Under the pieces are notes generated by a model. The model ran no database searches, was not told the origin of the DNA, and saw only the letters and a list, made by a program, of their open reading frames with translations. Positions 6,789 to 61,834 of a DNA stretch of 64,000 bases are shown here, piece after piece. The DNA comes from a virus (taxonomy: Duplodnaviria > Caudoviricetes). The stretch's first letter is position 1; each line of letters begins with the position of its first letter. The stretch covers positions 6,598-70,597 of IMG/VR virus record IMGVR_UViG_3300046010_012285; one strand, 5' to 3'. The position numbers and the translations under genes are program-made.

Positions 6789-7052
6789 ATGGAAAGCCCC
6801 CGTTTACTCCAAGCCGAAATCCATAGTAATTTTAGCACCGCTTCTGGTGATTGGGCGGCGTACAAATCAGAAATTACCGGACTGTACTCTGCAACTGGTT
6901 ATGGAGCTTCTGGCAACGCTACTTTTGGCGACTTCTCCGATCATTTAATCAGAGAGTTTAATGGCAAAATCGTAGAGCTTGGAATGCCTACTGGCTTACT
7001 GATCCAGCCCTACGATGCCGGTTATCGTTTAACAGGAATAGCTATTAGCTAG
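6789..7052 (+). CDS. hypothetical protein, possibly virion-associated
   Basis: Lone plus-strand gene behind GTGTAA; rich in SG/TG like the tail proteins. Confidence 0.6.
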   Translation: MESPRLLQAEIHSNFSTASGDWAAYKSEITGLYSATGYGASGNATFGDFSDHLIREFNGKIVELGMPTGLLIQPYDAGYRLTGIAIS

Positions 7053-7371
7053 CCTTTTCCGTCTTATCCTTAACGTAAGCTGACATAAGAACACAGTAGT
7101 TAAGGATGTCTAGGATCGCATCCTCATACGTCTCGTTCTTGACTGCCAGCTTGCCGTCAGCAGCGAAGGTAGAAAGGCGAGAAACCTTATCTACGATTCG
7201 GACCAAGAACCCCTGCTCAACAGAGCAAACCCCCATCGCCTCGCAGCGTTGGAAATTTGCAAAGGGGGTATCGCCCTTGCTGCCAGCATAGTCATTGTTT
7301 TTGGTCTTCATAATATCGAACGCCTTGGCGCACAGATGATTATGATGGGCGAAAAGTTGGTCGCGTGTCAT
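7045..7371 (-). CDS. nucleotide-modification-associated domain 1 (Nmad1/DUF1599-like, MazG-like helical fold)
   Basis: KNNDYAG...PFANF...RIVDKVSRL...ETYEDAILDILNY. Confidence 0.75.
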   Translation of the reverse strand: MTRDQLFAHHNHLCAKAFDIMKTKNNDYAGSKGDTPFANFQRCEAMGVCSVEQGFLVRIVDKVSRLSTFAADGKLAVKNETYEDAILDILNYCVLMSAYVKDKTEKAS

Positions 7372-7945: not shown

Positions 7946-9058
7946 TCAAAAATTGGTTTCGCGTCCGGTGATGAAATACTGGGAGATTGGAAGCGCACCA
8001 TTGTCGTCGGAGCACTCAAAGATGTAATCGTCATCGCGGAGCATATGGAAAATCTGGTCACAAGACAGATCGTAATCCTTCATGCGGCTCTGAATCTGCT
8101 TAACGGTCGGGTAGTGACCGTTGTCCTCAAAAAAGTTTTCGATATAGTTCGTCATCTTGAGAAGAAGAACATTGGTCGGAACTGGATCGCAGAAATCGCA
8201 CTTTTCTGGATTGTCGCAGAAGTCGCAGTCGCTTGAAGAATCCTTGATAGTAGGATCAATGCTGTCAGTGTCCTCGGCGTCATTATAAACCGCGCTGGGA
8301 ATCTCCTTGCGCTCTGGAGTGATATCAGAAATCACCTTGTACTTGGAGACGCGCAGCTTCTGGAAACTGCAATCGGTCGGCACGCTAACAGCATCAGCGG
8401 GGTCAACCTCAACCACAAGGAGACGCCCATTGTTGCCCGCCCAATTGTTGGCGTAGTCGTAGCTGCCAACGTGCAGGCCAAAGGAGCAGTGATTGTCCTT
8501 GTTGTCGTCAACAGAGCGGCGAGCGACTTCAATAGTCTCGCCAACGCCATTGTAGATAGAACCGTTTTCGGCAACCTTGCCGCTCACAACAAGCGTGCTC
8601 TTGTTGCCCTGCTTGGAATAAAAAGTATTATCAACTCCCTTGTAGGCCAAGAACTTTCCATCAGCGGTGATGGGCAAGCTCTTGTAGGACAAGAAGGAAT
8701 AGAGTTCGTTGACAGAGTTGGCGGAAGGATTCGCCATCAGACGATCAATAAAATTGATCAAGCTCTGAACGTCCTTTGCTCCCTGTGAGAGCATAGCCAA
8801 GAGCTTCTCGACAACTACACCGTCAAGCTGATGGTTCTTATAGAAGACCTCGCCATTCTTTACGGTAAGGTTGCCAAAACTGGCGTTCTGGATTCTGCTG
8901 GTAACGGAGACCAGCGAGGGAATCGCATCGTAATCCGCATTCAAAATCGCCTTACGAAGATCGGCAAAATTGATGTGCGTATTGTTGATCGTATGAGGCT
9001 TCCCATCAACGAAGACCGTGATGGAATTGTCCTGCATGATGTAGGCGGGCTTGTTCAT
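7946..9058 (-). CDS. rIIB: RIIB-like protein
   Basis: LMANPS...ELYSFL...ITADGKFLAYK...CSFGLHVG...VEVDPADAVSVPTD...KLRVSKYKV; adjacent to rIIA. Confidence 0.85.
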   Translation of the reverse strand: MNKPAYIMQDNSITVFVDGKPHTINNTHINFADLRKAILNADYDAIPSLVSVTSRIQNASFGNLTVKNGEVFYKNHQLDGVVVEKLLAMLSQGAKDVQSLINFIDRLMANPSANSVNELYSFLSYKSLPITADGKFLAYKGVDNTFYSKQGNKSTLVVSGKVAENGSIYNGVGETIEVARRSVDDNKDNHCSFGLHVGSYDYANNWAGNNGRLLVVEVDPADAVSVPTDCSFQKLRVSKYKVISDITPERKEIPSAVYNDAEDTDSIDPTIKDSSSDCDFCDNPEKCDFCDPVPTNVLLLKMTNYIENFFEDNGHYPTVKQIQSRMKDYDLSCDQIFHMLRDDDYIFECSDDNGALPISQYFITGRETNF

Positions 9059-9089: not shown

Positions 9090-11141
9090 TCAAGAATTAT
9101 TGTCGATAAAATTAATGTAGTCGATTACCTTGTCCATAGTGGCTTGATCAGCATAGCCATATCGGCCATTGATGACGATGTTAAGGAGAGGATACTTGGC
9201 ATCAATCTGGGCCATTGCCTCGGTAGCTTCCTTGGTAAAATCAAACTTTTCGGCAGGATTGAACCAGAAGGTTCCAATCTGTTCGATCAGTCTGGTGCAG
9301 GCAAGCTGTGCATCTGAACTGTCGTTTTTTAAAGTCATGTTCGACGCATACTTGCAAACAATGTTGTCTTTCGGAAGCTTGCCAGAATCTGCAAGCGCAA
9401 CGAACGGAGTCCGATAAGAGCACAAGCTGAGATAAGCTCTCTTCTTCGCGTAGAGGGACAACTCGGCGTTGATCTCTTGTATTTTCTTTTCGCAAGCAGC
9501 GAGGAAAAGAGCAGAAAGATTTTTGGCATTGCTGGGCAGAGACGAGTCGTCAATCACGCCGTAAATCTTGTCAACTCCGGTGACGCCAACTGCTTCGCAA
9601 GCACTGAAAACCTTGTAGACCTCAAACTTTTCAACTTCACTCTGGATTCCAAACTTAGCCGTACCCTTATTAGAGCGGCCTCCGGTGCTAGGCACAGAGA
9701 TTTTAATGTAAAAAAAATCAGTGTTAGGGGCGCCAATCTTATTGTAGAAGTCAACGTGATGAGTGTTCTTTTCGGCAAGCAGGCGAACATTACCAGCCTT
9801 TTGCTTCTTCTCCTTGGTAAAAGCCTCTACTTTGGAGGTATAAAAAACCCTGTCAGAAGAGAAAGTGTCGATAAAGAAATGCTCCGTCGCAGCTTCCTTA
9901 CTCACAACAACAACGGATTGAGTCTTATTCTCGCGGAGAATGGTCTCAGCCTTTTGCATTAGACTACCCTTTTCGCCTTCGTCAACCAGAAGAGCATAGT
10001 TGCTCGATCCAAAGCCAATAGGCTCAACCCGAAAAGAACTCTTCTTCAGCGGTCTGATGTTCTTGTTCCTGTTCAGAGTGTAAGCCTTGTAAGAATCATC
10101 GGGCAAACAGAACGAAAGGACTGCCTTGCGATTTTTATTGAAATAAAAAGCGTGGTCAGAGAGAACCCTAGTAAGCCTGTGCTTTCTCACAGAAAACAGC
10201 TTATTCATAAACCCTAATCCATCAGAAAAAGAATCAAGCTCGTTCTGAACAGAAGCTGCGAGTTCGCTGATGAAAAGGTTGATCCGAGTAGTAATGAACT
10301 TCTTGCAGTGCTCGGTATACTCAAGCGACTCTCTGGAGTGGTGCAGGGGAACAGAACCAACCGGAGCGAAAAGAACCAGTCCAACGGTATAAGACCAGTC
10401 TTTGAGCATAGGGTGATCCAACGGAATGCAAGCGTCGATCTTGATGGGATAAGCGATGCCGCCCATCACAATGAAATTATCTGTAAGGCTCGACACTGCC
10501 CACTTATCGGTCTTAATCAGCCATTCAATTTTGTTAACCTGCAAATCAGCAACATACGAATTGCGATCTTGAAAACGCAAGACGCTGTTGAGCGCAGTTT
10601 GAAAAGAGCTAACATCATCGAACTTGACTGCAACATTGATCTCCAAGCCAGACGGCTCGTTCGACTCGCATCGATTCAGCATCGAAAAACGAGTGTCGCC
10701 GTGCTCGTCAACGTAAACCATCACGGTCAAAGCTTCGCCGCCGTGATAAGAGATAACAGTAAAAGAATCAGTGTAAGACAGGGGCGCAAAGCGACCGATA
10801 CCAAACCCGCCAATGCAGGCATTATCAGAACGCTTGGTCGAGCGACCATACTTGGTGTAGAGACCAAAGAGGTCAGCTTCAGAGAGGCCAGCACCAAAGT
10901 CGCGGACCTTAAAAATGGCATCAATCCTATTGGGACACTGAATGGAAATGGGTTGCGAAGAGCCGCGATTCGCATCGAGTGCGTTGGCGACGATCTCACG
11001 AACCGTAGCGAGAATCGGCTCGGAATAGTTGTTCCGCAGGAGAGAGGAGACGTACCTCATCTCCTGCTGGTCAATGGTAGCGATTTCGCTACGGAAGTCG
11101 TGAGACTCGACGACGTTCTTTTGGATGGTTTTGACAATCAT
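9090..11141 (-). CDS. rIIA: RIIA-like protein (GHKL/HSP90-like N-terminal ATPase)
   Basis: REIVANALDA, DFGAGLS, YGRSTKR...IGGFGIGRFAPLSYTDSF. Confidence 0.88.
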   Translation of the reverse strand: MIVKTIQKNVVESHDFRSEIATIDQQEMRYVSSLLRNNYSEPILATVREIVANALDANRGSSQPISIQCPNRIDAIFKVRDFGAGLSEADLFGLYTKYGRSTKRSDNACIGGFGIGRFAPLSYTDSFTVISYHGGEALTVMVYVDEHGDTRFSMLNRCESNEPSGLEINVAVKFDDVSSFQTALNSVLRFQDRNSYVADLQVNKIEWLIKTDKWAVSSLTDNFIVMGGIAYPIKIDACIPLDHPMLKDWSYTVGLVLFAPVGSVPLHHSRESLEYTEHCKKFITTRINLFISELAASVQNELDSFSDGLGFMNKLFSVRKHRLTRVLSDHAFYFNKNRKAVLSFCLPDDSYKAYTLNRNKNIRPLKKSSFRVEPIGFGSSNYALLVDEGEKGSLMQKAETILRENKTQSVVVVSKEAATEHFFIDTFSSDRVFYTSKVEAFTKEKKQKAGNVRLLAEKNTHHVDFYNKIGAPNTDFFYIKISVPSTGGRSNKGTAKFGIQSEVEKFEVYKVFSACEAVGVTGVDKIYGVIDDSSLPSNAKNLSALFLAACEKKIQEINAELSLYAKKRAYLSLCSYRTPFVALADSGKLPKDNIVCKYASNMTLKNDSSDAQLACTRLIEQIGTFWFNPAEKFDFTKEATEAMAQIDAKYPLLNIVINGRYGYADQATMDKVIDYINFIDNNS

Positions 11142-13072: not shown

Positions 13073-13561
13073 TTAATTAGAAGTTAACTGTTCGATTTTT
13101 AAATTGTAGCAGCTTGACGGGAAAACGTATTTGTCTCCTCTGGGATCGGGATCGAAGTCGCCGCCATTAAAGAATGTAGCCTGCTCAAAAAAATCCTTCT
13201 TCTTGATGTAGCCGAGAATCCAGCCCCTGCTGTAGTCTCCAAAGATACTGGTGAATAGGTAGTAGTCGCATTTCTGCTTAGTGTTGTATTCTTTCACCGT
13301 ACAGTTGTACCAAGGCTGCGGCACAACGTTGCGCTCTTTGGATTTAATTTCAAATAAAAATAGCTTGGGCGAGATCCAGTCGAAATCGAAGCTCATATCC
13401 GATACGATTCTGCCGCCCCAAGTCTTCTGAACCATAAGGTCAGACAATGCGGCTATCTTAGTTCCGTGATTATTTGTGTCCGAATTATTCAAAATTGGAA
13501 CTTGCGCGGCTCTTTCCAAAGCCTCGCTGATCATATCTTGATTTATTTCGACCTCAATCAT
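13073..13561 (-). CDS. PD-(D/E)XK restriction-endonuclease-like protein
   Basis: DFD...FEIKSK catalytic pattern, then CDYYLF and GWILGYI. Confidence 0.6.
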   Translation of the reverse strand: MIEVEINQDMISEALERAAQVPILNNSDTNNHGTKIAALSDLMVQKTWGGRIVSDMSFDFDWISPKLFLFEIKSKERNVVPQPWYNCTVKEYNTKQKCDYYLFTSIFGDYSRGWILGYIKKKDFFEQATFFNGGDFDPDPRGDKYVFPSSCYNLKIEQLTSN

Positions 13562-14214
13562 TCGTTATTTTTAAATTGATAAAAGTAGTCGTAGTTGTCT
13601 TCTGCGACCCACTTGCCTTTACCCTCACAGGTGAACTCCCCATCAAATACCTTCCAGTCGGGCCTCTTGTCAAGCTTTTTGGAAATAAAAGCACCGCCAT
13701 CTTTCCAGATCACTCGGTTGTTTGGCTGTAGGAATAGCTGATTAACCGCATCACCTTTCTTATTCTGTAGTCCCCAGATGAGGTGGCCGCACTTGTGGCC
13801 CCCAGCCATTTCAGAATAGCCGTAGGCAGCGTCAGGGTTATCATGCCAGTCTATCGTGAATAGATATTTGCCCTCAATCCATTCACGATTTTTTAGCTGT
13901 ACTTCAACCGAGGCGTTCTTGTGATACTCGTATCTCGTAACTGAAAGAGAGTTGGAGAAACAGTCCCAAAGTTGCAGCCAATCAAGATCAAACTTGGAGT
14001 GTTCTGGGTCTTTAACCAGATAATGAATTGGCACTCTATCGTGCCTCGACCCAAACTCCGTCATGATTTGGAACATCAAGCATCGTCTAGTTAAAGATGT
14101 GATGCCAAACACTTCACAAGGAATGTATTCTGTATTTTTATTAGTATTATTATACAGAAAATCACTCTTCAGATAAGCAAAGAACGTCGGAATGTTTGAG
14201 TTGAGGTGCGGCAT
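13558..14214 (-). CDS. conserved phage hypothetical protein
   Basis: LNSNIP...LQLWDCFS...GKYLFTIDW...HKCGH...QPNNRVIW pattern recalled from other phage proteins. Confidence 0.7.
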   Translation of the reverse strand: MPHLNSNIPTFFAYLKSDFLYNNTNKNTEYIPCEVFGITSLTRRCLMFQIMTEFGSRHDRVPIHYLVKDPEHSKFDLDWLQLWDCFSNSLSVTRYEYHKNASVEVQLKNREWIEGKYLFTIDWHDNPDAAYGYSEMAGGHKCGHLIWGLQNKKGDAVNQLFLQPNNRVIWKDGGAFISKKLDKRPDWKVFDGEFTCEGKGKWVAEDNYDYFYQFKNNE

Positions 14215-15091: not shown

Positions 15092-15360
15092 TGTTGTAAA
15101 ACTAGTCTGATTTGGCATAGGTAAGCTTCTGGACTAACCGAGAACCAGCCCTTAATTTCAAGCTCTTGAGTGAAGAAACTTGTCTCATTAACTTGAATTT
15201 CGCCCTCAATGCCGAGTTCTGGCACTGAAATTAAAATATAGTTATTATTTGAGATAACTTTGGCTTTTGACAAGAGGTCGATTTCATACTGCTTTTCGAC
15301 ATCGACTCCGAGGTGCTTTGCTGACTTTTGCGTCAGTTCAATTCGTCCTTTGAATTTCAT
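15088..15360 (-). CDS. hypothetical protein
   Basis: 90 aa, 4-nt overlap with the BGT-like gene. Confidence 0.6.
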   Translation of the reverse strand: MKFKGRIELTQKSAKHLGVDVEKQYEIDLLSKAKVISNNNYILISVPELGIEGEIQVNETSFFTQELEIKGWFSVSPEAYLCQIRLVLQQ

Positions 15361-16349
15361 AGAAGAAAATCTTTTATTTGCTTGATTGCGGTTCGTTTTT
15401 CACTAATCGCCTGATCGAAGAATGTCTGTTGATGCATCAGGTTTGCTTGAAAAGCAAGAGATTCTGCATAATTAGTGATGCCATTTTTCAGTTTTTCACC
15501 ATCGATAATCAAACGGTCAGGAATCGTATAGCCACACTTTTGAATAGTGTTTGAGCAATCGGCATCGAATAGCATAACAACGTCTGCCATCAAAGCTTCA
15601 TAAAAGCGATTAGCCAGAAATGCATAATTTTTATGCGTATGCTCGTCCTCCATATAAATGGAGTACTTAAATTTGCGAAGATCTTCGTTATTCTTCTGCC
15701 ATTCAAGTTTAGGCATATAGTTGCAATTGCAGCCAAGGGCTTGGAATTTTTTCCAATTCTTATTGGAAGCAGAAAGAAATACTCCTTCCCTCAAGAACTT
15801 TTTAAAGGATTCGGCTCGCCATTTACGGTAGGTGCCATAATAAATTACGCCATTCTTTTGCGAATGGTCAACTGGTTTTCTGTTCTCGTCCATAATCAAC
15901 GAGTTCAGATTAACGGTCAGCCACTTATAGATAAAGTCGTTAAGTTTTCTATTTGCAATATTCTTGTTCAAGATCCAGTGGCGATATCCTTCTCTGGGAT
16001 TGTTGCAGATCATGTCGTATACCAAGCCCATATTGACCACGCCCCAACGTAAAAGCTGATTGTCTTCAATATCGTGATCGTTTACAAGCCAGATATACCT
16101 TGCCTTGGGGTTCTTCTCTAGAACCTGACGATAAGGTACATGGGGCATATAAGGCGAGGCATAGCAGCAGATGATGATATCGTACTGCTTCTTTAATACT
16201 TCTGGTAGGAAATATTCGCCATCAAGAAGATCGGCGCCAAGAGCATTCTTCAAGATTAAGCTATTTCGACAATGTACGATGGAAGTGTCGCTATAATCCT
16301 CTGCCAGCGGTTTACGCTTGCTAGTAGCTTCAATAATCAATATATTCAT
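15357..16349 (-). CDS. T4 DNA beta-glucosyltransferase (BGT)-like GT-B enzyme
   Basis: YIWLVND ~ T4 YYLFTD; VIYYGTYRKWR ~ VIYGGSFRSGQR; EDEH...ANRFYEALMADVVMLFD ~ GDKN...TLRVWETMASDAVMLID; similar length. Confidence 0.75.
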   Translation of the reverse strand: MNILIIEATSKRKPLAEDYSDTSIVHCRNSLILKNALGADLLDGEYFLPEVLKKQYDIIICCYASPYMPHVPYRQVLEKNPKARYIWLVNDHDIEDNQLLRWGVVNMGLVYDMICNNPREGYRHWILNKNIANRKLNDFIYKWLTVNLNSLIMDENRKPVDHSQKNGVIYYGTYRKWRAESFKKFLREGVFLSASNKNWKKFQALGCNCNYMPKLEWQKNNEDLRKFKYSIYMEDEHTHKNYAFLANRFYEALMADVVMLFDADCSNTIQKCGYTIPDRLIIDGEKLKNGITNYAESLAFQANLMHQQTFFDQAISEKRTAIKQIKDFLL

Positions 16350-16379
16350 TAGATTGGGTATAAGTATTTAAAAATTTCT

Positions 16380-16754
16380 TTAGGCTTTTTCGAATTGCCC
16401 TTGTTCATTAGAATAATAAATCTCTTTAAAACTAACGTCATTTAGAAGCTTTTGGCAGTGCTTGCACGGCTTACCCATAGCAACTTTATTATTCCTGTCA
16501 ATACGAAATGTAACTAAGGTATGCCTTGAGTGGTCTATGTTCCCTGACTTAATAACGGCGCAAGCTTCTGCGTGTAAACCACTTCCATCAAAGTAGCCAT
16601 ACTTTTGGTTAATTGGATGAGATTTTTTGGAGTTGCGTCCAATAGAAACTATTTTGCTTTTGTTTAGGATAAAAGCGAAGTGGCGACAACGCAATTCAAT
16701 ATCGTCATAGATTATCAGATTCCTAGCAAGGCTTACCAGTCTGCTTAAATTCAT
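16380..16754 (-). CDS. zinc-dependent cytidine/dCMP deaminase-like protein
   Basis: HAE...KPCKHC motif; start set at MNLSRL because the longer TTG start is the -35 box. Confidence 0.85.
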   Translation of the reverse strand: MNLSRLVSLARNLIIYDDIELRCRHFAFILNKSKIVSIGRNSKKSHPINQKYGYFDGSGLHAEACAVIKSGNIDHSRHTLVTFRIDRNNKVAMGKPCKHCQKLLNDVSFKEIYYSNEQGQFEKA

Positions 16755-16761
16755 TGCTATG

Positions 16762-16790
16762 AATTTAAAGGGCTCTTTGCCCTTTGTCAA
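16762..16790 (-). promoter_or_regulatory. sigma70-like promoter TTGACA-N17-TAAATT, 7 nt before the deaminase ATG
   Basis: Read directly; the spacer contains the inverted repeat AAGGGC/GCCCTT. Confidence 0.65.
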
Positions 16791-16803
16791 GCCTTTTTGA
16801 GAG

Positions 16804-17286
16804 TTATTTTGGTTTTTCGTAAACCAAAGTTAGGTAAAGGTCATTATCATTAAAAACTTTTTTAAATCCAAAAAGATTTAAAAACCTTATATATGCTTCA
16901 AATTTTTTTCTTTTTTTGTAAACTGGAGCGTAAAAAGTGTCAAAACGCATATCGTTCAGAGTATTGATAAATGTGTCGTACATTGCGCTAGTTTGGATAG
17001 CGTTTGCATCAGCAAAACAATAGAGTAGTTCGGCTGTTTTTGTAGTTTGGGGCTTGATTATAAAAGCTGCCCCAGCCTTATTTTTATGTCTAAAAACGAA
17101 AGAATGCCTAGTGTTTTGCTGCAAAACCTTGCTTATTTGCTCCAAAAATACTGTTGGGGAGCTATGCGGACTTACGCCAAATGAAGATTGCGCCGAAATC
17201 GCTAGTTTTAATATATCAGGAATATCTGTCAAATATAGTCTTGTGACCTCAAAAGAATCTATTTTTATCTTGCTTTTAGGGTCCAT
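16804..17286 (-). CDS. GNAT-fold protein (putative acetyltransferase)
   Basis: Size and strand pattern, AELLYCF strand and C-terminal RFLNLFGFKK resemble GNAT motif B. Confidence 0.45.
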   Translation of the reverse strand: MDPKSKIKIDSFEVTRLYLTDIPDILKLAISAQSSFGVSPHSSPTVFLEQISKVLQQNTRHSFVFRHKNKAGAAFIIKPQTTKTAELLYCFADANAIQTSAMYDTFINTLNDMRFDTFYAPVYKKRKKFEAYIRFLNLFGFKKVFNDNDLYLTLVYEKPK

Positions 17287-17294: not shown

Positions 17295-17316
17295 TATAAT
17301 CTAAAGGTAAAAGGAA

Positions 17317-18807
17317 ATGTCAAGGGAGTCTAGTCAAAAAGTAAATTCTGAGCTATTTTCATTAGAGCCTACCGCTCTTTTGGAATTTTTTGTTATTTAC
17401 TATAACTACGTTGAAAGACCTGATGATAAACTTTACATTCACGGCGGAACTAATGGAATAAATAGTTCCATATATTGGCAAGGCGTTGAATATTTGCCGT
17501 TCCCAATTCAAAGTTCAGAGTTTGAAAGTAAGGGCGATGGCAGTTTGCCAAGGCCCAAATTAGCAGTTTCCAACCAAGATTTTTTTATATCTAATTTAAT
17601 TAGAAGATATAATAATCTTGTAGGCGCCAAAATTGTCAGAAAAAGAACCTTTTTAAAGTTCTTGGACGATGTTAACTTTTCGGAAGGGAAGAATCCATAC
17701 GGATCAGCAGATCCAAATGCTGGTCTAGAAGATCAGGTATTTTTTATTCTGAGAAGAGAAAGCGAAACTAGAGCCTTTGTTAATTTTGAATTAGCCTCTC
17801 CGCTTGAGATCGAAAACGTAACATTCCCTAAAAGAACGGTTATGGCTAGATACTGCTCTTTTCATTACCGAGGCAATGGTTGCAGATATATGGGCGAACC
17901 AGTAGCTGATGAAAATGATAGAAGATTGTCTCTTCCCACTGATTTTACCAAAGGATCATTAATAAGAAGAAAATATACTGGAACAACAATGCCTTCAAGC
18001 AATAGTACTTTTACAAGTGCTATAGCTGCGGCTAATTTTTCTTCTGAGACGCTGGTTACGAGTACTGCTCCAGAAGTTGCCGATAATTATTATTACGAAT
18101 TTTTAGGGTATTTTAAAGCAGACTATGGCGAGGGTGGAACTTACTCTTTTCAAGTTCAAGTTAATGATTGTGTAGAATTGATTATAAATAATACTATTGT
18201 ATGCTCTCGATATTCATCTAACGGTTCAACTATAAATGTCTCTGGAAGCATTACATTGCCAGAAGGCTACCATAGGCTCGTAATAAGGTTTTTTGAAGCT
18301 AACGGAACCGGCGGGGATCAATATTTAACTTTAAGCTATAAAGTTCCAGCTTCTACTTCTTTTGTCTCTGTGCCCTCTACTAGATTTTTTTATGATCAAT
18401 TTGAACTTGGACTCTTAACCTCTACTCAAAGATTTTATACAGCGGTTTCACTTTCTAAATCTATTGCCCTAGACAACTCCACAGTAAAAGGAGAAACATT
18501 TGCTGGCATATGGGAAAATGGTAAAAATTACCGAGTTGGAGACTATGTTTATATAGAAAATTATAATATTAAAGTGTCTAAAAGAGATTGTAATGATTCT
18601 CCTAATTGGCAACCTTTACAAGTCTTTTATTTTTGTATTAAAAACCACGCTTCTTCGATGACAAAATATCCGTCTTTGGACAAAGAGCATTGGGTGGCTG
18701 ATCAATGTTCTAGGACTTTAAGTGGCTGTAAATTAAGATTTGGGAACAAGGGTTATTTGCCATTTGGCGGATTCCCCGGAACTGAAGAATATTCTATTTC
18801 TATATAA
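17317..18807 (+). CDS. minor tail protein L (lambda gpL-like) with inserted PA14 and CBM-like modules
   Basis: WQGVEYLPFPI, GDGSLPRPKL, GAKIVRKRTFLKFLD, YCSFHYRGNGC, DQCSRTLSGCKLRF, LPFGGFPG (four Fe-S-type Cys). Confidence 0.9.
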   Translation: MSRESSQKVNSELFSLEPTALLEFFVIYYNYVERPDDKLYIHGGTNGINSSIYWQGVEYLPFPIQSSEFESKGDGSLPRPKLAVSNQDFFISNLIRRYNNLVGAKIVRKRTFLKFLDDVNFSEGKNPYGSADPNAGLEDQVFFILRRESETRAFVNFELASPLEIENVTFPKRTVMARYCSFHYRGNGCRYMGEPVADENDRRLSLPTDFTKGSLIRRKYTGTTMPSSNSTFTSAIAAANFSSETLVTSTAPEVADNYYYEFLGYFKADYGEGGTYSFQVQVNDCVELIINNTIVCSRYSSNGSTINVSGSITLPEGYHRLVIRFFEANGTGGDQYLTLSYKVPASTSFVSVPSTRFFYDQFELGLLTSTQRFYTAVSLSKSIALDNSTVKGETFAGIWENGKNYRVGDYVYIENYNIKVSKRDCNDSPNWQPLQVFYFCIKNHASSMTKYPSLDKEHWVADQCSRTLSGCKLRFGNKGYLPFGGFPGTEEYSISI

Positions 18808-41176: not shown

Positions 41177-43741
41177 TTAAGATTCTAAATCGGAAAGCTT
41201 AGTATAAATTTTCTCGTTCAAGATTGATAGTGTATTTAAAAATATAGAGTCCTCAGACTTATTTCCGTACACAATAACAATCTCATCTTCCTTTGGTGTG
41301 CGGCCTTCACCTTCATAATACCTTGTCATATTATCTTGGCGACCATCCATCAACCGGCAGGAGATCTGACCATATTCATCAGAAAGCTTAATAAACAGAT
41401 AGTTGTTACCGTTTCTGCTAGTCTTCTTTCGCGCTTCTTTAACAATCCCAACCATCTTGACTGCCTGTCTAGGCTCTGATTGCAGTACTTCGTAGCTGGT
41501 AAGCAGTGCATCAGAATCAGTATCTTGGAATACTTCCTTCAGCTTGTAGGTGTAGCTGTAGCCAAGAAGACGCTTTTCAAAGAACCAATTAGCGAACTTC
41601 TCGTATTTTTTATTCATTTCATAAATACGTTTAAATGGCTCGTACTTATTTTTAAAAGTATTGTAGCGTTTTTCAGACATTAGGAGCTTTCCATCATCTG
41701 CGGTCTGCTTATTCTTCATCGCTTCTGAGATAGTTGTCAATACATCGTGCCCATATTTTGGCGCAAGAAGTTTTACATTTCTCTTTTCTCTGTCAGTAAG
41801 CGCATTATAAGTCTGAGCTTCAAGCACCAATCTGCAACGCTTTTCTGTAAAGCTAGATAGAGTTCCAGCTTGAATCAGTGCAGAAAGAACACCAATATTT
41901 AATCCAGCTTCTTTTGCGCCATCGAAGCAGTCGATCTTGTTTGAGAACTCGCCCTGACGAAACTCAAGTAGCTTGGATAGGATCTTGTCAGATACTCCTT
42001 TGATTGCATTGAGTCCAAAGCGGATATTATCGCCTTCAATTTCAAAGTCTGGCTTAGACTTAACCAAGTCTGGAGCAAGAAGTCTGATCCCAAAGAATGG
42101 AAGCTCCTGAGACACCGCCTCAATCTCTTCGTGCGGATCTGGCTCATGTCTGGAGGACTTCAGTAGGGCTAAGAAGAATTCCTTGGGATAATTAAACTTT
42201 AAAAACGCGGTCAGCGCCGAAAGTGTTGCGTAGCTAGCTGCGTGAGAAAGATTGAACGAATAATTCGCACTGTCTTCGGCCACCTTCCAGAGCACTTCTG
42301 CAACTTGCGAATCAAGACCACTCTCTCTTACCTTATTGGTAATCTTCTCTTTCCAAGCTGGCATCTCGCTAACCTTCTTCTTGCCAATGATTCGGCGCAC
42401 AGTCTCAGCTTCATCAAGAGTAAACCCTACCTTTACGATCATCTTCATCAACTGTTCTTGGAAGATTGGAATACCTCCAGTAATACTTAGGATGTCGTCA
42501 AAGAATGGGTGGACGGATTGGAACTCACCGCTTTCGATGTATCTGGCGTACTGATCTAGGAAGTCCAAAGCACCGGGGCGAGCGAGCGACAATACGCACG
42601 CAAGCTCAAGCATATTTCTTGGCTTAACCTTTTTACAAACGTGGAAGTTGGTATTGGCCTCGATCTGGAACAGACCTTTTGGATTCTTTAGATCTTGCAA
42701 GAATCCGTAAGTCGATGGCTGATCAAAATTAACTGTTTTAAAATCAAGCCCGAGTCTTTGGCAAGTATCGAATACAACAGATAGGGTTCTCAGACCCAAA
42801 ATATCAAATTTGACAGTGATGTCGGATACGTTGTTCATATCATATCCAGATACAATTTCACCGTCGCCGGTCTTTTGGAGCGGCATGATATCCTCGTTGT
42901 TGTAAAAGGAGATGGAGATGCCAGATGGGTGAACGCCAGTATTCTTGTTTAATCCCTCAATTTTCTTAGCAATCTTAAATACCTTTGGGTTTTTATTACA
43001 AAAAGCCCTGAAGATTTCGCTCTCATCATAAGCATCTTTGAGCGCAAAGACCTTACCGAACTGTTTTGGTATAGAGTCGCTTACAGCGTTTACCTCATCT
43101 TCGCTCATCTCGCCAACAATCTTGCCGCACTCCTTAATGCAGAGTTTGCCAGTCAATGTATTCATCGTCAAGATCTTACAGGTCTTGCCAGAATACTTTG
43201 TCTTAATGTAATTGATTACATCCTGACGACGCGAGAACTCGATATCATTATCTACGTCAGGCATCAGAGATCCATCGAGATAAGTTACCCCATCAACGAC
43301 AATCTTCTTAGCTCTGCTCTTTGAAACGAATCGCTCAAAGAATAATCCGTTCTTAATCGGATCTACATTGGTGACGCCAATAAGAAAAAGAATAAGCGAG
43401 CCAGCAGCAGAGCCGCGCCCATAACCAGTAGGAATGCTATGCTCGTGAGCATAATTAAGAATGTCCCAATTAAGCAGGATATAGTCAGTGAAGCCCAGTT
43501 CTTCAAAAACTGAAAGCTCGTACTTTGCTCGTTCATAATATTCTTTTTTATTGTCAAGCTTGTCGATCCCTTTTTCTTTGACTGCCTTGAGGCAGAGTTG
43601 ACGGAGGAATTCATAATTAGAAACAGAAGATGAGACGCCAAGCTTCTCGTAGTGGCGGGTATCGATTTTGATTTCGGGGAGACGAACACCGGGCGGAACT
43701 GGATGCTCGTACTTCTGGAAACTGCTATTAAAATCAGTCAT
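41177..43741 (-). CDS. dnaE: DNA polymerase III alpha (family C) lacking the PHP domain
   Basis: GYGRGSAAGSL, FERF, PDVDND, GVHPSG, KFDILGL, GLFQIE, RPG, IFQEQLM, YSFNLSHA, C-terminal OB fold. Confidence 0.95.
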   Translation of the reverse strand: MTDFNSSFQKYEHPVPPGVRLPEIKIDTRHYEKLGVSSSVSNYEFLRQLCLKAVKEKGIDKLDNKKEYYERAKYELSVFEELGFTDYILLNWDILNYAHEHSIPTGYGRGSAAGSLILFLIGVTNVDPIKNGLFFERFVSKSRAKKIVVDGVTYLDGSLMPDVDNDIEFSRRQDVINYIKTKYSGKTCKILTMNTLTGKLCIKECGKIVGEMSEDEVNAVSDSIPKQFGKVFALKDAYDESEIFRAFCNKNPKVFKIAKKIEGLNKNTGVHPSGISISFYNNEDIMPLQKTGDGEIVSGYDMNNVSDITVKFDILGLRTLSVVFDTCQRLGLDFKTVNFDQPSTYGFLQDLKNPKGLFQIEANTNFHVCKKVKPRNMLELACVLSLARPGALDFLDQYARYIESGEFQSVHPFFDDILSITGGIPIFQEQLMKMIVKVGFTLDEAETVRRIIGKKKVSEMPAWKEKITNKVRESGLDSQVAEVLWKVAEDSANYSFNLSHAASYATLSALTAFLKFNYPKEFFLALLKSSRHEPDPHEEIEAVSQELPFFGIRLLAPDLVKSKPDFEIEGDNIRFGLNAIKGVSDKILSKLLEFRQGEFSNKIDCFDGAKEAGLNIGVLSALIQAGTLSSFTEKRCRLVLEAQTYNALTDREKRNVKLLAPKYGHDVLTTISEAMKNKQTADDGKLLMSEKRYNTFKNKYEPFKRIYEMNKKYEKFANWFFEKRLLGYSYTYKLKEVFQDTDSDALLTSYEVLQSEPRQAVKMVGIVKEARKKTSRNGNNYLFIKLSDEYGQISCRLMDGRQDNMTRYYEGEGRTPKEDEIVIVYGNKSEDSIFLNTLSILNEKIYTKLSDLES

Positions 43742-44364
43742 ACGTTTACCTCCATAATAAGCTTACGGAAGATCTTATAATTCATTGTGATATCGTAAAG
43801 CGCGTTGTGCAGCTTGCTTGGATCGTGATCTATGGCAAAGTGCTTCAGCATAAAGCCTTGACTGGTCTTCAATCCCTTCTCGTAAAAATTCATAAGCTTC
43901 ATTTGCCAAGGCAAGAGGTCGCCAGATGGCTGGATTCCTTTAAACATTGCAGTAGACAACGCACGGGTGTCAACACATCGGCTCAAAAAACTCCAATCGT
44001 TCTTGATCCCGATTGTATTCATCATCGTGTTTAAGATATAAATATCGTAGTTAAGGATATTTTGCCCTACAAGTAGGTTGTTGCTATCATAAAGATAAGG
44101 CGCGAACGTCTGCCATACTTCAAGCGGAGCCTTGGCCTTAGACAAGTAATCGGCGTGATTAAAGCCGGTTATTCTAGCTGCTTCTGGCGATACATTTAGA
44201 TCAGGATACAGAACGAACTCATCGTGAGACTCAAGGATCTTATCGCCTTGGCAAACGATCCAAGATAGCTGCCAAGGGCGCGAAGCAGTCAAAGACAAGC
44301 CTTCGGTCTCAGTATCAAATACTACAAACTTCTGATTAAGATTTTGTTTTAAAAGGGTATTCAC
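43738..44364 (-). CDS. DEDDh 3'-5' exonuclease (DnaQ-like)
   Basis: VFDTETEG, GQNILNYD, HNALYD; GTGA and ATGA overlaps with both neighbours. Confidence 0.88.
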   Translation of the reverse strand: MNTLLKQNLNQKFVVFDTETEGLSLTASRPWQLSWIVCQGDKILESHDEFVLYPDLNVSPEAARITGFNHADYLSKAKAPLEVWQTFAPYLYDSNNLLVGQNILNYDIYILNTMMNTIGIKNDWSFLSRCVDTRALSTAMFKGIQPSGDLLPWQMKLMNFYEKGLKTSQGFMLKHFAIDHDPSKLHNALYDITMNYKIFRKLIMEVNV

Positions 44365-45095
44365 GACATCTCCTTCCAAGATTGGAAACAGAACTCTTTG
44401 CTAGCGCAGCCATTGATTTCTGGCGCAGAGAGAGTTTGATGCTTGCCCATTCTTCTGTTGCAGGCAATCTTATAAGTCAACCAAGCCTCGTAGTCCTCTC
44501 TATTCTTATAATAAATAGACTTGACCATAATCGGAGTTGGGGTGAGCGATTTCACCGACTCACCGATAACAGGGTCAAATGGAAGCTTGTTATCTTCCGT
44601 AAAGAAAACATGATCGAAGTCTTTAAGGAAAGTAGGCATACAGTTCTTAAAGAACTGCCAGTTCTGCCAAACGAAACTGTCGTAAAACGGCACCGCGATC
44701 AAAACATCATCAGTAAGGCGAGTAGCCAAATCATCGTTTGAGATGATGCTATCCTTCTCCGTGTTGGCGAATGTAAAGATTTTACTAATACTTTTAAATC
44801 CTGCGTCATTCTTGGCAAAGAGAATGAGCTTACTTTTTGATGAGTCTACTGACTCATAAGAGTTGCAGATATCCATTCTAACACCAAATCTAAGATGGAT
44901 ATCGTGCTTCGCACAGGTTTTAAACGCAGTCAAAAAACCCGTAAGAGAATCTTCTACTAAATGAAGAGTCTTCAGATTGTTTTCTATGGCAATCTGAATG
45001 ATGCTGTCTGGTCCGTCCTTCTTCTGCTTTTCTGGTTCTGCCAGAGTCAGAATGCTTTTCCCGACAGAAAAGCTAGACTTGAATAGTGGGATCAT
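44361..45095 (-). CDS. stand-alone PHP domain of DnaE
   Basis: PLFKSSFSVGKSIL, LVEDSLTGF, LRFGVRM, LILFAKNDAGFKSI; start set at MIPLF. Confidence 0.85.
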   Translation of the reverse strand: MIPLFKSSFSVGKSILTLAEPEKQKKDGPDSIIQIAIENNLKTLHLVEDSLTGFLTAFKTCAKHDIHLRFGVRMDICNSYESVDSSKSKLILFAKNDAGFKSISKIFTFANTEKDSIISNDDLATRLTDDVLIAVPFYDSFVWQNWQFFKNCMPTFLKDFDHVFFTEDNKLPFDPVIGESVKSLTPTPIMVKSIYYKNREDYEAWLTYKIACNRRMGKHQTLSAPEINGCASKEFCFQSWKEMS

Positions 45096-45102
45096 GCCCA
45101 CT

Positions 45103-45130
45103 ATCTTACAGGATTTCAATCCCGTGTCAA
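45103..45130 (-). promoter_or_regulatory. sigma70-like promoter TTGACA-N16-TAAGAT, 7 nt before the PHP ATG
   Basis: Read directly. Confidence 0.65.
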
Positions 45131-46144
45131 GTGTTTCGGGCACCCTGCGTAGTATTCTTTCGTAACTTTGTGCCCACCCTTTGCTATTTTAAACGCCTCT
45201 TCTTTATCGTCCTCAAAGAATGTTTTGATAATCTTATTGTCCTTGTCCCTGAGAGCGTAATAATTAAAACTGAATTTATATGGACAGTGCCACTTTGGCT
45301 TACCATCCTTCTTTAATTCACCCTTCTTCTTGGCAAACCCACAGGCCAGCTTACCGCTAAAAGAGCCATCAGAAGGCATCGGCTTATCGGCGGCAAAGTT
45401 TGAATAGGCGTCAGCTTCCGAGAAATTATCGACTACCTTCTGCACCTCAGTAAGCTGGTATTCAAAACTGAGAAGATCCTCATCCGTCAGATGATCCATC
45501 TTTAGCAGGCCATCGCCGCCCTTTGAAACGTCAAACTTTAAGAATAAAAATTCAACACGGGTAGTAAGCTCTGGGTCAAGCTTTTTTGACGCCAAGGTAT
45601 ACATCAAATGCTGCATATTGTCCTCAGCATCCTTACCAGCAAATACCGCTTTGCTGGTCTTATAGTCGCGAATTACAGACGTTTTGTCCTTATAAGCGAA
45701 GAAGCGGTCAATAAAGCCTTTGATCCTGTACTTCTTGTTCTCTTCGTTAACGACGATATCAAACTCTCTTTCGCTGCAATCTTGAACAGGCTTTCTCTTA
45801 GCGTTGCCAAAAAAGTCGTAGCTTAGCCCAACAAGAGTCATTTCCCTGATAGATTCAATATTATCTAGATCAGAAACCTTATTCTTTCTGGCTCTCTTTA
45901 ATGTCAGCGACTTAACTGACTTGATGCAGAAGATGTCGCCTTTTTCCAGAATCTGATCTACGTATTTCTTTCTTCTTGGGTGCGAAAGAACCTCAAGAAT
46001 AAGGTGTACTACATCTCCCCTGCTAGCTCCATCATTTGGGGTGTCTGGCAGCTTGAGGACATAGTTGCACCAGTAGGACCAACTGCATTTTTCAAGCGTC
46101 TTTATCCTACTAGCTGATAGGGCCGTGTGTTTTGAATCAGACAA
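45116..46144 (-). CDS. PD-(D/E)XK nuclease, RecB/AddB/Cas4-like
   Basis: LSASRIKT..KC, GDVVHLILE, IKGFIDR, IRDYKTSK, QHLMY, C-terminal Cys residues. Confidence 0.88.
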   Translation of the reverse strand: MSDSKHTALSASRIKTLEKCSWSYWCNYVLKLPDTPNDGASRGDVVHLILEVLSHPRRKKYVDQILEKGDIFCIKSVKSLTLKRARKNKVSDLDNIESIREMTLVGLSYDFFGNAKRKPVQDCSEREFDIVVNEENKKYRIKGFIDRFFAYKDKTSVIRDYKTSKAVFAGKDAEDNMQHLMYTLASKKLDPELTTRVEFLFLKFDVSKGGDGLLKMDHLTDEDLLSFEYQLTEVQKVVDNFSEADAYSNFAADKPMPSDGSFSGKLACGFAKKKGELKKDGKPKWHCPYKFSFNYYALRDKDNKIIKTFFEDDKEEAFKIAKGGHKVTKEYYAGCPKHLTRD

Positions 46145-51322: not shown

Positions 51323-51949
51323 TTAAAGCTTGAAAGCTTGTATTGTAAGGGGGAACTTGTTAGTTTCTTTTACGAGTTCTAGCATTTGACTCGCAATGTT
51401 GCGAATCTCTACTTGCGCATCTTGTTTATTACGAAGATTTAAGAAGTGATAAAATGAGCGCCAATTAAACATTACGTCGCTAGTGATCTGGGTATTGTAC
51501 CCCCGAAAGAATCGAGCAGACTCCTTAGCCCGTTTTCTAGTGAACCCAAAGTTCTTAACTAGATCATCTATGCACTTATGGTATAGATCCATCCCCCTCT
51601 CTGTGTGAGTAGATAGGATATCTTTCCAAGTATCAGGCCAATCTTCTGGGATTAGAAAATCATCCTCCTTGATTTCTTTGTATCTTGCCGATTCTCCGTT
51701 AACGGAAACCCCAACCCTATGCTTGATAAGGTGAATATGAGAAGCAATGTCAGTCTTAATCAAGAAGTGGAGTGATGACTTTTCAAATGGAGTGTGATGT
51801 CCATTATCGGCTAGCATCTTGAGTAAATCGCCAATTCTGCCCTTCTTTTCCTCGTTGATTTCCCGACTGGTTGAAGTCCAAGCAGAACAAGCATGAGTAA
51901 GATCGTCGCCATAAATTCCTATTAGTTGTACGCTATTTGTTTTGCTCAT
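51323..51949 (-). CDS. thyX: flavin-dependent thymidylate synthase
   Basis: GHHTPFE, KHRVGVSVNGESARY, ESAR, FNWRSF..F..LR...AQ.EIR. Confidence 0.93.
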   Translation of the reverse strand: MSKTNSVQLIGIYGDDLTHACSAWTSTSREINEEKKGRIGDLLKMLADNGHHTPFEKSSLHFLIKTDIASHIHLIKHRVGVSVNGESARYKEIKEDDFLIPEDWPDTWKDILSTHTERGMDLYHKCIDDLVKNFGFTRKRAKESARFFRGYNTQITSDVMFNWRSFYHFLNLRNKQDAQVEIRNIASQMLELVKETNKFPLTIQAFKL

Positions 51950-52871
51950 TGTATATTTTATTATAATTCATTAATACGTTAGAATAATATACAGCATGAA
52001 AGAGTGGGCTGGCAAGACTTTCTCCTAGGATTTTTTGATCTTTTTTCAAATTTATTAAAAACTCCTCAAACATATCGCTTCCTAAAATAAAATTTTCTAT
52101 GGAAAATTCATCCAAATAAATAAATGGTCTAAAAATATCAAAGATATGATAGTACCAAGAGATCTCGTCCTGTTGAACTGGGGGCTTTAAAAATACGCAG
52201 ATAGAATTCGATGCTAGTGCCCATATCAGCCTTTCCCAAGAAGTAGTGTTGCCGTTAACATTTAAAATATATTTATATTTTAATTGGTCCTTTATGGATA
52301 TGTATTGATGGGTTATCGAGTCGTCATTACGTCCATCTACAAAATTTGTTATCTTTGCGATAATGTCTTCGTGCCCCTTATACATCTTGCAAAGTTTGGT
52401 TCTTTGACAAATTCCATTCTCGTATCTTTTGCCGGTGTCTGAACCAAAGAAAGAAATCTTATTTATTTTATCTTCTAAAGGAATATCGATTTGATTTAAA
52501 TTTCTACATATTGATTCTACTCTTGGTAAATGAGAGTCTGGAATGCATATGTGCGGACTATTTCTAGGTCTTGCAAAGAAAAACCTAGTCTCCAGTTCTT
52601 CGTAATGAGGACCATCGTTTAGGTTAACGATAAACTTAAAGTTTAAATCTTTTAAATCAAAGCGATTTAAAACTTGCTGTGTAAATCCTTCGAAAAAGTT
52701 TAATCTTATATTGTCTGTTTCGCCACCATCTCTTAGTTTAATTAGCTTGCCAGAATTTATCCAATACTGAACTTCGTTGTTAGCTAGCAGACAGGTATCA
52801 ATATTTTTAGGAAGATTGATCCGTCTTTCATCAATTTCATTAAGCAGGCAATATTTTATAAATTTATTCAT
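51933..52871 (-). CDS. GT90 (KDELC/CAP10-like) glycosyltransferase
   Basis: FFGSDTG...R...QLKYKYILNVNGNTTSWERLIWALASNS. Confidence 0.7.
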   Translation of the reverse strand: MNKFIKYCLLNEIDERRINLPKNIDTCLLANNEVQYWINSGKLIKLRDGGETDNIRLNFFEGFTQQVLNRFDLKDLNFKFIVNLNDGPHYEELETRFFFARPRNSPHICIPDSHLPRVESICRNLNQIDIPLEDKINKISFFGSDTGKRYENGICQRTKLCKMYKGHEDIIAKITNFVDGRNDDSITHQYISIKDQLKYKYILNVNGNTTSWERLIWALASNSICVFLKPPVQQDEISWYYHIFDIFRPFIYLDEFSIENFILGSDMFEEFLINLKKDQKILGESLASPLFHAVYYSNVLMNYNKIYNEQNK

Positions 52872-52894
52872 TAGAGTTTTAAAATAGCGATATG

Positions 52895-53719
52895 TTATAT
52901 TACGTTGTAATGTTTAGCGCTGTCGATTATTTTTTGAATCCAAAAATCAGCCAGCAGATGTTTTCTATCAAAATTATTTTTTGCCTCATCTATCTTAATT
53001 TTAAGATAGCTTGAATTTTCGAATTCTGATATATCTGTTACTAAATAAACAGGAAATAGGTTATGTATAAATCGGTACTGCAAAGGGTCAAAGCTTATTG
53101 CTACCCTATCTAAAAATGCAGTTTCATAAATTCTATGAGTATCCGCCCCATTTCCAATTGGGCATACAACTGCTTCATGGTCTAAAATTCCTTGAATAAA
53201 CTGATCGTAATTGTTGCTTGGGTTTTCCCAAGTAACGCAAGATTGTGCAATTAGAATATTTTTGATAAAACTTCTATGGGTGCGGTTTGTTTCGATATTA
53301 AAATTAGCATAAACTAAATTTCTTTTTGTAAAAGAATTCTTATTTTTTTCAAAAAGTTTTTTTGCTTTTAATGGAGCGTGATCCCAAACATACCCATGAC
53401 TAAATTCATAGGAGTTGCTATGGTGTCTTTTTGACGGCTCGCTATTTTCTAGACCGATTGGGATAGACTCAAGAATATTATTTTCTGACAATCTATTTTG
53501 ACAAAACCATTTTTTAATATTTTTTGGCGCTAATGCAACGAGATCATCGCCAATAGAATAGTCACTATTGCCTGTGATTAAAATTACATCATTTTTTAAA
53601 AGTTTTATTTTTTCAAACTCAGAATGGATAAAATCTGTTTTGCAGAAAATTATTTTTTCGCCATCATGAATTTGAGATATTTTGTTTATAGATATAGCAT
53701 CATTCGTGCTCCAGATCAT
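52895..53719 (-). CDS. exostosin/GT47-like glycosyltransferase
   Basis: ILITGNSD, KWFCQN, IPIGLEN, VVCPIGNGADTHRIYE. Confidence 0.65.
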   Translation of the reverse strand: MIWSTNDAISINKISQIHDGEKIIFCKTDFIHSEFEKIKLLKNDVILITGNSDYSIGDDLVALAPKNIKKWFCQNRLSENNILESIPIGLENSEPSKRHHSNSYEFSHGYVWDHAPLKAKKLFEKNKNSFTKRNLVYANFNIETNRTHRSFIKNILIAQSCVTWENPSNNYDQFIQGILDHEAVVCPIGNGADTHRIYETAFLDRVAISFDPLQYRFIHNLFPVYLVTDISEFENSSYLKIKIDEAKNNFDRKHLLADFWIQKIIDSAKHYNVI

Positions 53720-54731: not shown

Positions 54732-54733
54732 TT

Positions 54734-55336: not shown

Positions 55337-55384
55337 AAAATTTATATTTAATATTAAATGTCTATTTGACTTTGACTACAGATC

Positions 55385-58461: not shown

Positions 58462-58515
58462 TTCCCCAGCCTACGGATAAAATACTTATAGACTTTCCGT
58501 TTATCATTGATCTAT

Positions 58516-59708: not shown

Positions 59709-59758
59709 ATTTTTCTAACCTGTTGTTTATTTAAATTTGCAATACTATTTTATTATTG

Positions 59759-61754: not shown

Positions 61755-61806
61755 TAAGCTTAATCCTCAATAATGGAAATAGAAAACCATTAATATCCAT
61801 AATAGG

Positions 61807-61834
61807 ATATTACGATTATGGCAAGGTTTGTCAA
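61807..61834 (-). promoter_or_regulatory. sigma70-like promoter TTGACA-N16-TAATAT heading the glycan island
   Basis: Read directly in the intergenic gap. Confidence 0.6.

Follow-up and report, generated by a model that had tools for sequence, protein, structure and literature searches.

The β-glucosyltransferase (BGT) of phage T4 (PDB 1J39, 1C3J) is a phage-encoded, two-domain GT-B enzyme of 351 aa, which we take to be CAZy family GT63, and it serves as a standard reagent for tagging 5-hydroxymethylcytosine (5hmC). Sugar-modified DNA shields phages from restriction enzymes and CRISPR nucleases, and to our knowledge every characterised DNA glycosyltransferase relies on a partner that first places a hydroxyl on the pyrimidine. 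GT-B glycosyltransferases (GTs) of uncultured phages from metaviromes (GT53, GT66 and GT94), whose models resemble BGT and in which an Asp equivalent to D100 was proposed, glycosylate 5hmC in DNA, and ∼65% of the GT-bearing contigs carry no neighbouring base-modification enzyme, thymidylate synthase (TS) or 5mYOX (bioRxiv 10.1101/2023.12.21.572611). Here we analysed a stretch of 64,000 nucleotides of a tailed-phage genome (Caudoviricetes; IMG/VR record IMGVR_UViG_3300046010_012285, positions 6,598 to 70,597), called the window below and used for all coordinates that carry no other handle. It was found that the window encodes a 330-aa GT-B transferase (15357..16349, (-) strand), which is a remote homologue of T4 BGT.

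An alignment of 41 relatives, 27–87% identical to the window protein, was drawn from 112 homologous metagenome clusters. The AlphaFold2 (AF2) model built on it had a pLDDT of 95.2 and a pTM of 0.92. When the model was compared with the PDB by Foldseek, ranks 1–6 were all T4 BGT entries (E 4.3e-10 to 6.5e-8, TM-score 0.67–0.70), and the next family followed at E 9e-6 with a TM-score of ∼0.5. The similarity of the metavirome enzymes to BGT in Foldseek was weaker (E 1e-5 to 1e-7; bioRxiv 10.1101/2023.12.21.572611). The VIA all-against-all aligner also placed BGT first, with a Z-score of 22.2 and a root-mean-square deviation of 3.1 Å over 300 of the 330 residues. The second match was T4 α-glucosyltransferase (AGT; PDB 1Y6F, 1XV5), likewise a DNA-base-flipping GT-B enzyme, with a Z-score of 18.9, and generic GT-B enzymes did not exceed 16.8. 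By this ranking, the two nearest solved structures are the two T4 DNA glucosyltransferases. A fold comparison with BGT was a check named by an earlier first-pass annotation of the window, made from the letters by eye, and BGT came out on top in both programs.

At the sequence level, the kinship with BGT was detected by profile-to-sequence hhalign only, in which the family profile was aligned with the T4 b-gt product from NC_000866. The local alignment covered the C-terminal domain with a probability of 86.5% (E 4.6e-6), and the global alignment extended over 313 columns with a probability of 92.1% (E 7.9e-8). In the local alignment, GTYRKW-R, NRFYE and ADVVMLFD of the window protein were paired with GSFRSGQR, LRVWE and SDAVMLID of T4 BGT, respectively; WLVND91 was paired with LFTD100 in the global one. 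All the pairs that the first-pass annotation had matched by eye were thereby reproduced, in columns that are invariant or D/E in the 41 relatives. R175 and R178 corresponded to Arg191 and Arg195 of BGT, R248 and E251 to Arg269 and Glu272, and D235 to D258. The UDP-binding columns R175, R178, R248 and E251 were invariant in the alignment (n = 41), as were E234 and D235, and position 91 was always acidic (D in 31 sequences, E in 10). In the AF2 model D91 comes after the strand 84–89, just as the catalytic Asp100 stands at the end of β4 in BGT. By analogy, D91 is the putative catalytic base, and R175, R178, R248 and E251 are the predicted UDP-binding residues. PHROGs and NCBIfam gave nothing useful for the 330-aa protein, and phmmer and profile searches against PDB sequences returned chance matches only and did not retrieve BGT. 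Fused long forms were searched for and none was found; one relative of 456 aa has a C-terminal extension of no assigned family. Taken together, the match to T4 BGT is far beyond chance, and the two proteins come from a shared stock.

Because BGT and AGT top the structural ranking, the catalytic columns are conserved and the family is restricted to phages, we infer DNA to be the acceptor and the protein to be a UDP-sugar-dependent, inverting, base-flipping DNA-base glycosyltransferase with an unrecognised source of the acceptor. The gene contexts in unrelated phages, described below, point the same way, since they belong to DNA metabolism or anti-defence or are DNA-modification clusters. We regard this reading, including its sugar donor and its biological role, as probable and hold it with moderate confidence. 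In such a scheme, the transferase would act after replication and attach the sugar to a base of the double-stranded DNA of the phage itself, which would be protected in this way against host nucleases. By analogy with BGT, the C-terminal domain would hold the UDP-sugar via R175, R178, R248 and E251, and the target base would be flipped into the cleft. D91, at the end of β4 in the N-terminal domain, would then deprotonate the acceptor hydroxyl, with direct displacement at C1 of the sugar.

The transferase family comprised 112 protein clusters, and >330 IMG/VR contigs carried it. Among 185,579 species genomes just four loci with the family were found, all of them on contigs of metagenome-assembled genomes, and the family is therefore essentially phage-specific. 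Its neighbourhoods were inspected in a first set of 80 close IMG/VR loci and in a second set of 72 loci, to which clustering of the neighbouring proteins was added. In the clade of the window phage the transferase was 69–98% identical, while the neighbour proteins fell to 27–60%. The clustering revealed two related lineages with the transferase at the same tail-side position as in the window clade. In one of them, a distinct, canonical deoxycytidine monophosphate (dCMP) deaminase (PDB 2w4l, 5e-11) is encoded immediately 5' of the transferase, and ThyX follows 2.2 kb downstream. In the sister lineage (L168), the upstream genes are two open reading frames (ORFs) of no known family, a Sulfotransfer_2 gene and an 84-aa ORF, and UvdE and ThyX are found downstream.

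The transferase was also found in unrelated phages. L051 is a 93%-complete phage of 47.7 kb with a GC content of ∼60%, in which a copy 78% identical to the window protein lies between an Enc34-type single-stranded DNA-binding protein and PolA. This copy (L051:10001-10987) has a GC content of 46%, far below the ∼55–65% of the genome, and is clearly a recent horizontal acquisition from a low-GC phage. Phages related to L051 carry the transferase elsewhere in the same replication module, just before an SNF2 helicase. In a complete 68.7-kb genome with terminal repeats, the transferase gene overlaps the start of DnaB, and genes for a PDDEXK nuclease and ERF come next. In a P22-like genome that is 99% complete, it belongs to the nin region, which reads Cro, DUF1376, GT, RusA, NinB; the nin region of small temperate phages is a frequent home of orphan DNA methylases. 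The Straboviridae phage S13 of Cronobacter (L001, KC954775.1 42709-43560) encodes a BGT-like homologue between uvsY and uvsW. The homologue of the cultured phages S13, LPCS28 and Citrobacter Ci1, none of which has gp42, is 26% identical. On a viral contig of 99 kb (L170:9247-10930), a homologue of Acb1, an anti-CBASS phosphodiesterase, and an 82-aa ORF directly precede the BGT-like gene, which hints at an anti-defence neighbourhood. When the proteins just 5' of the transferase in S13, L092, L093 and L167 were compared in search of a shared partner, no significant mutual similarity was observed, and the proteins of L093 and S13 gave only a weak match of 34 residues. Since only the transferase recurs in these unrelated phages, it is a mobile, self-sufficient unit moving between them.

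Two of the transferase contexts are, judging by their gene content, overt DNA-modification clusters. The first (L163:4476-13245) encodes, in order, a sulfotransferase, an NAD-epimerase, an Sm-like protein, a truncated TS homologue, the BGT-like GT, a 179-aa protein, a canonical GNAT, two Asn-synthase-like genes and a radical SAM gene. The TS homologue showed a partial PF00303 match, as T4 gp42 does; its catalytic Cys is kept, the C-terminal tail of TS is absent, and it aligns Asn, as in uracil-specific enzymes. The cluster is a candidate for an elaborate thymidine-type hypermodification. In the second (L090:10001-15652), the GT and an N6/N4 methylase are followed by ORFs of 228 and 113 aa, then by a pair of C5 methylases and a ThyX that is unusually long at 306 aa. 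No Pfam match was obtained for the 228-aa ORF, which might encode a dioxygenase that has escaped recognition. Upstream of the transferase in L093 are genes for a UDP-glucose dehydrogenase and an epimerase/dehydratase. Sulfotransferases thus occur near the transferase in two independent contexts, the L168 group and L163, and the sugar could be sulfated.

Several observations weigh against DNA as the acceptor, and one group of them concerns the source of the acceptor hydroxyl. In the window, Pfam searches of ORFs of at least 100 aa found no TS-fold protein, TET/JBP, C5-methylase or 2-oxoglutarate (2OG)-dioxygenase, and the only thymidylate synthase was ThyX, in agreement with the first-pass annotation, which had seen neither a hydroxymethylase nor a TET or C5-methylase there. 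BLAST of the unassigned window ORFs against T4 gp42, the TS of S13 and the TS-like protein of L163, together with RSxD/HxD motif scans, returned nothing, and no DSBH protein came to light; ESM-Atlas look-ups of 13558-14214 and 32977-33744 gave no informative family. The annotation had also proposed a search of the rest of the genome for TS-fold hydroxymethylases; PF00303 was found in none of nine close-clade records, which together extend ∼23 kb past the right end and ∼9 kb past the left end of the window. It was also absent from 22 of the 23 second-clade records, the remaining one being L163 with its TS-like gene, and PF00145 was absent from all 23. PF12851 was absent from 15 records in a search that had no positive control, and PF13640 from all complete genomes with the transferase. 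Four complete or near-complete genomes with the transferase (210, 68.7, 34.4 and 47.7 kb) had no PF00303, PF00145, PF12851 or PF13640, PF00145 being unsearched in the 47.7-kb one (G008). ThyX was present in only the 210-kb genome. A TS or C5-methylase neighbour was seen in L163 and L090, and not in the window, the nine close-clade records or the 22 second-clade records (for TET, the search was the one without a positive control). Cronobacter phage S13 encodes one full-length canonical ThyA and no gp42-type hydroxymethylase, and no DNA-modification data for S13, LPCS28 or Ci1 were found in the literature.

Some candidates for such a partner were discarded. PF00303 candidates of a first look in G002, G005, G017, G022 and G024 gave no score even at E 10. 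Two 2OG-oxygenase matches near relatives of the transferase were considered as TET/JBP; one proved to be a prolyl-4-hydroxylase homologue and the other was 2rg4-like.

The known hydroxyl sources now include, besides TS-fold hydroxymethylases and the pair of C5-methylase and TET, 5hoC synthases, themselves homologues of TS (PMC13326640), and T-dioxygenases of phages (PMC13229309). It was also considered that the free-standing, mobile BGT-like family glycosylates phage DNA without any of these known partners, which we put forward tentatively, as a rather doubtful proposal. The enzyme would either act on a canonical base directly or receive its acceptor from an unrecognised enzyme; in the larger phages, a ThyX-type enzyme releasing 5-hydroxymethyl-dUMP is a chemically conceivable source. 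Such a family would play a stand-alone anti-restriction role, as orphan DNA methylases do in nin regions. Phages that have lost their hydroxymethylase could instead keep the transferase as a relic or in a non-catalytic role, in keeping with the failure to find a partner enzyme in most genomes. This seems extremely improbable, given that the catalytic and UDP-binding residues are invariant (D/E at position 91) in 41 diverse relatives, that the transferase is strongly conserved in a clade whose other proteins have diverged much further (69–98% against 27–60%), and that unrelated phages have acquired it recently.

The remaining observations that tell against DNA concern the protein and its surroundings. 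A Pfam scan (E up to 0.1) gave no match to the T4 BGT model, only two spurious sub-threshold hits. The window transferase is mildly basic (isoelectric point 8.7; family median 8.0); isoelectric point and net charge were dropped as indicators of DNA binding because they are too weak. In three related phage groups the transferase lies directly beside the tail-L/K/J operon. In the L168 sister group (L168:8059-17926), the Sulfotransfer_2 gene and the 84-aa ORF are the immediate 5' neighbours of the BGT-like gene, and 6 kb downstream there is a homologue of prolyl-4-hydroxylase (PDB 7zsc, E 3e-23). The window itself has genes for five further GTs, a GDP-mannose dehydratase, a HAD-nucleotidyltransferase and methyltransferases. 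Complete genomes have the transferase and no known source of a DNA hydroxyl, as described above, and the acceptor is not fixed by fold similarity alone. The tail-side position, the genes of the L168 group, the glycan genes of the window and the missing hydroxyl source would fit an enzyme of the BGT fold with a non-DNA acceptor. Such an enzyme would modify a protein of the virion or the host, for example at Ser, Thr or hydroxyproline residues of the tail or capsid, or else a small molecule or glycan intermediate, and would act in the phage glycosylation machinery or in host takeover. We consider this alternative possible and give it limited credence. It does not readily account for the closest solved structures, which are both DNA glucosyltransferases and match over the whole two-domain fold, acceptor domain included. 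In unrelated phages, replication, recombination or nin early regions contained the transferase gene, not late or structural ones, and small phages without other glycan genes visible nearby have it as well. Moreover, glycan GTs are plentiful in cellular genomes, from which this family is virtually missing, and some relatives lie beside a TS-like enzyme or DNA methylases. A DNA-base glycosyltransferase is still the reading that we prefer.

The first-pass annotation had treated the transferase as one member of a DNA-glycosylation cassette with a deaminase and a GNAT-like protein. The three ORFs were confirmed where it had placed them, all on the (-) strand (15357-16349, 16380-16790 and 16804-17286), as were the 30 nt between the stop of the deaminase and the start of the transferase (spacer 16350..16379, (-)). 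The deaminase and the transferase are probably co-transcribed. The identification of the deaminase also stood: Pfam PF00383 matched at E 1.1e-5, just above the cut-off, and the zinc-binding HAE and PCxxC motifs are present, with H73, E75, C109 and C112 conserved in the family. An exhaustive phmmer search with the deaminase gave 1850 representative relatives, nearly all of 120–140 aa. Since many homologues begin at residue 13 of the query, the true start is probably ATG 16754, which would give a protein of 124 aa (16380..16754, (-)); the mechanical ORF reaches TTG 16790, and this TTG lies in the –35 box of a promoter-like site.

The site, TTGACA-17 nt-TAAATT (16762..16790, (-)), corresponds to the promoter that the first-pass annotation had assigned to the deaminase. 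This sigma-70-like match upstream of the gene is a consensus match only, and such sites are not enriched in the region (8 observed against 8.3 expected). It ends 7 nt 5' of the deaminase ATG, which suggests a leaderless or near-leaderless mRNA (16755-16803). The spacer of the promoter-like site contains an inverted repeat, GGGC...GCCC, which could be a terminator of the GNAT-fold gene or an operator. A second sigma-70-like match, TTGACA-16 nt-GATTAT (17296..17323, (-)), again by consensus only, lies 5' of the GNAT-fold gene, in the divergent region that this gene shares with the tail-L operon.

A profile of 36 deaminase relatives was compared with solved structures, and the matches were cyanophage S-TIM5 (4p9c, 1e-8), human DCTD (2w4l, 5e-7), T4 cd (1vq2, 1.6e-6) and Streptococcus mutans (2hvv, 2e-6). 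All the solved matches were dCMP deaminases, apart from one 'nucleoside deaminase family protein' at E 0.004. The dCMP deaminases of S-TIM5 (4P9C) and T4 (cd) share with the window protein the small zinc deaminase fold and the HAE/PCxxC motifs, and the S-TIM5 enzyme is of similar size (138 aa); it has HAEQNA where the window deaminase has HAEACA, and the window deaminase alone matched solved dCMP deaminases weakly (E 0.2). Because the solved relatives are dCMP deaminases, and ThyX and ribonucleotide reductase (RNR) are encoded in the same genome, the protein is, judged from its sequence, most likely an ordinary dCMP deaminase giving dUMP to ThyX.

The 160-aa protein (16804..17286, (-)) had no match in Pfam, including the GNAT models, in PHROGs or in NCBIfam, and its 22 homologues all belong to the clade of the window phage. 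Its AF2 model had a pLDDT of 90.2, and the top Foldseek matches in the PDB were all GNAT acetyltransferases (E ∼1e-6, TM-score up to 0.72), implying that the protein is a GNAT by its predicted fold. It shares this fold with acetyltransferases such as Ard1/Naa50 and PH1933; unlike them, it has no glycine-containing coenzyme A (CoA) loop but a basic K-x-R-K instead. The CoA pyrophosphate loop after β4 (Q/RxxGxG/A) is replaced by KKRKK (residues 124–128), with no glycine, and K124, R126 and K127 were invariant in 21 sequences of the family. The term 'GNAT-like' was therefore borne out for the fold by AF2 and Foldseek, but not for the CoA loop or by a Pfam GNAT match. The 160-aa protein diverges fast, being 33–62% identical where the transferase is 85–98% identical. 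No similarity was detected between it and either the GNAT of L163 or the 179-aa neighbour in L163.

The cassette would work, for example, by deamination of an hmC-type nucleotide or base to give an hmU-type acceptor, which would be glycosylated and its sugar then acetylated by the GNAT. The order GNAT–deaminase–GT was constant among the 80 close IMG/VR loci, and is kept across a close clade with transferases 69–98% identical, but these loci are all of one phage lineage. In a second related group, the place just upstream of the GT is taken by another deaminase, a canonical dCMP deaminase, and the canonical GNAT of L163 stands two genes 3' of the GT, in a cluster with the TS-like enzyme that aligns Asn. 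This distant relative lends indirect support to the hmU idea of the first-pass annotation, but nothing alike was found for the window phage. A deaminase occurs beside the transferase only within three related phage groups, six annotated contexts in unrelated phages have the transferase with no deaminase and no 160-aa protein (0/6), and the sister group has other genes in place of both. No hydroxymethylase was found to feed the route. The solved relatives of the deaminase family are dCMP deaminases, and ThyX offers an ordinary use for dUMP. The 160-aa protein is unlike the GNAT of L163, does not have the Q/RxxGxG/A loop and has a promoter-like site of its own. We therefore consider a three-enzyme route very unlikely, and the proposal of one cassette was not borne out, since the three-gene order is kept in the close clade only. 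The link between deaminase and transferase is at most a trait of one group of related phages and is explained by ordinary nucleotide-metabolism clustering; nothing that ties the GNAT-fold protein to the transferase could be demonstrated.

The three genes head a long, tightly packed, same-strand run of small genes, which include an HNH endonuclease, the UV-endonuclease UvdE and homologues of rIIA and rIIB, and a lambda-type tail-tip operon (L, K/JAB, I, J) diverges on the other side of the group. The statement that this is not a T4-type phage was upheld, with the transferase in an early-type operon and a lambda-like tail. The window also encodes PolIII-alpha, DnaB, primase, RecA-type replication, a class I RNR, a ClpB/C-like ATPase and ThyX (51323..51949, (-)), which is its sole thymidylate synthase and lies outside any cassette. 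Besides the 330-aa protein, at least five glycosyltransferases and a sugar-nucleotide island are encoded. The full genome was expected to be ∼144 kb from CheckV estimates for related contigs, and the window is under half of it. Megablast of the window against GenBank phages gave no match.

Several further features of the window were observed. A low-GC block (∼30%, 51933-61834) is a Pfam-supported glycan island with a GDP-mannose 4,6-dehydratase, two GT2 genes, methyltransferases and a HAD-nucleotidyltransferase fusion. The rIIB-like (7946-9058) and rIIA-like (9090-11141, HATPase_c) genes are present alongside the lambda-type tail tip, and their Pfam matches come from near-identical genes of a related contig. 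The replicative polymerase is apparently split into three adjacent ORFs, namely a PHP domain (44361-45143), a DnaQ-like exonuclease (43738-44379) and the PolIII-alpha core (41177-43741), which carries HHH and OB domains. An ORF of 108 aa (7045-7371) had a weak, sub-threshold match to DUF1599, 'nucleotide modification associated domain 1' (E 0.0015). The highly conserved 218-aa protein at 13558-14214 (phrog_3704, labelled 'ferredoxin') is encoded no more than a few kb from the BGT-like gene in the window clade and also in L092 and L130, two other phage backgrounds.

The family thus keeps the catalytic residues of BGT, is abundant (on >330 viral contigs), moves as a single gene and occurs in complete genomes in which no known partner was found. 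If it is a true DNA modifier, there would be a new route to the acceptor or a new acceptor, which would widen viral DNA chemistry and provide a new DNA-labelling enzyme. If the acceptor is not DNA, the BGT scaffold would not be DNA-specific, which matters for the annotation of GT-B genes in viromes. Cronobacter phage S13 is a cultured carrier, in which the question is directly testable.

Among the described systems, the metavirome GT-B enzymes are likened to the window protein by description, as proteins of uncultured phages with BGT-like models. Those that were tested adjoin a C5-methylase and a TET-like dioxygenase, or a TS homologue, none of which was found in the window or in the four complete or near-complete genomes. 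The window phage differs from T4 in its lambda-like tail and PolIII-type replication, and the gp42-type hydroxymethylase and dCTPase of T4 are absent. T4 BGT itself is only ∼15–19% identical to the 330-aa protein, but its catalytic Asp and the R...R/RxxE UDP-binding residues are aligned and conserved in the window family. AGT, the second structural match, is a retaining enzyme without an Asp100-type base, whereas the window protein carries the BGT-type residues.

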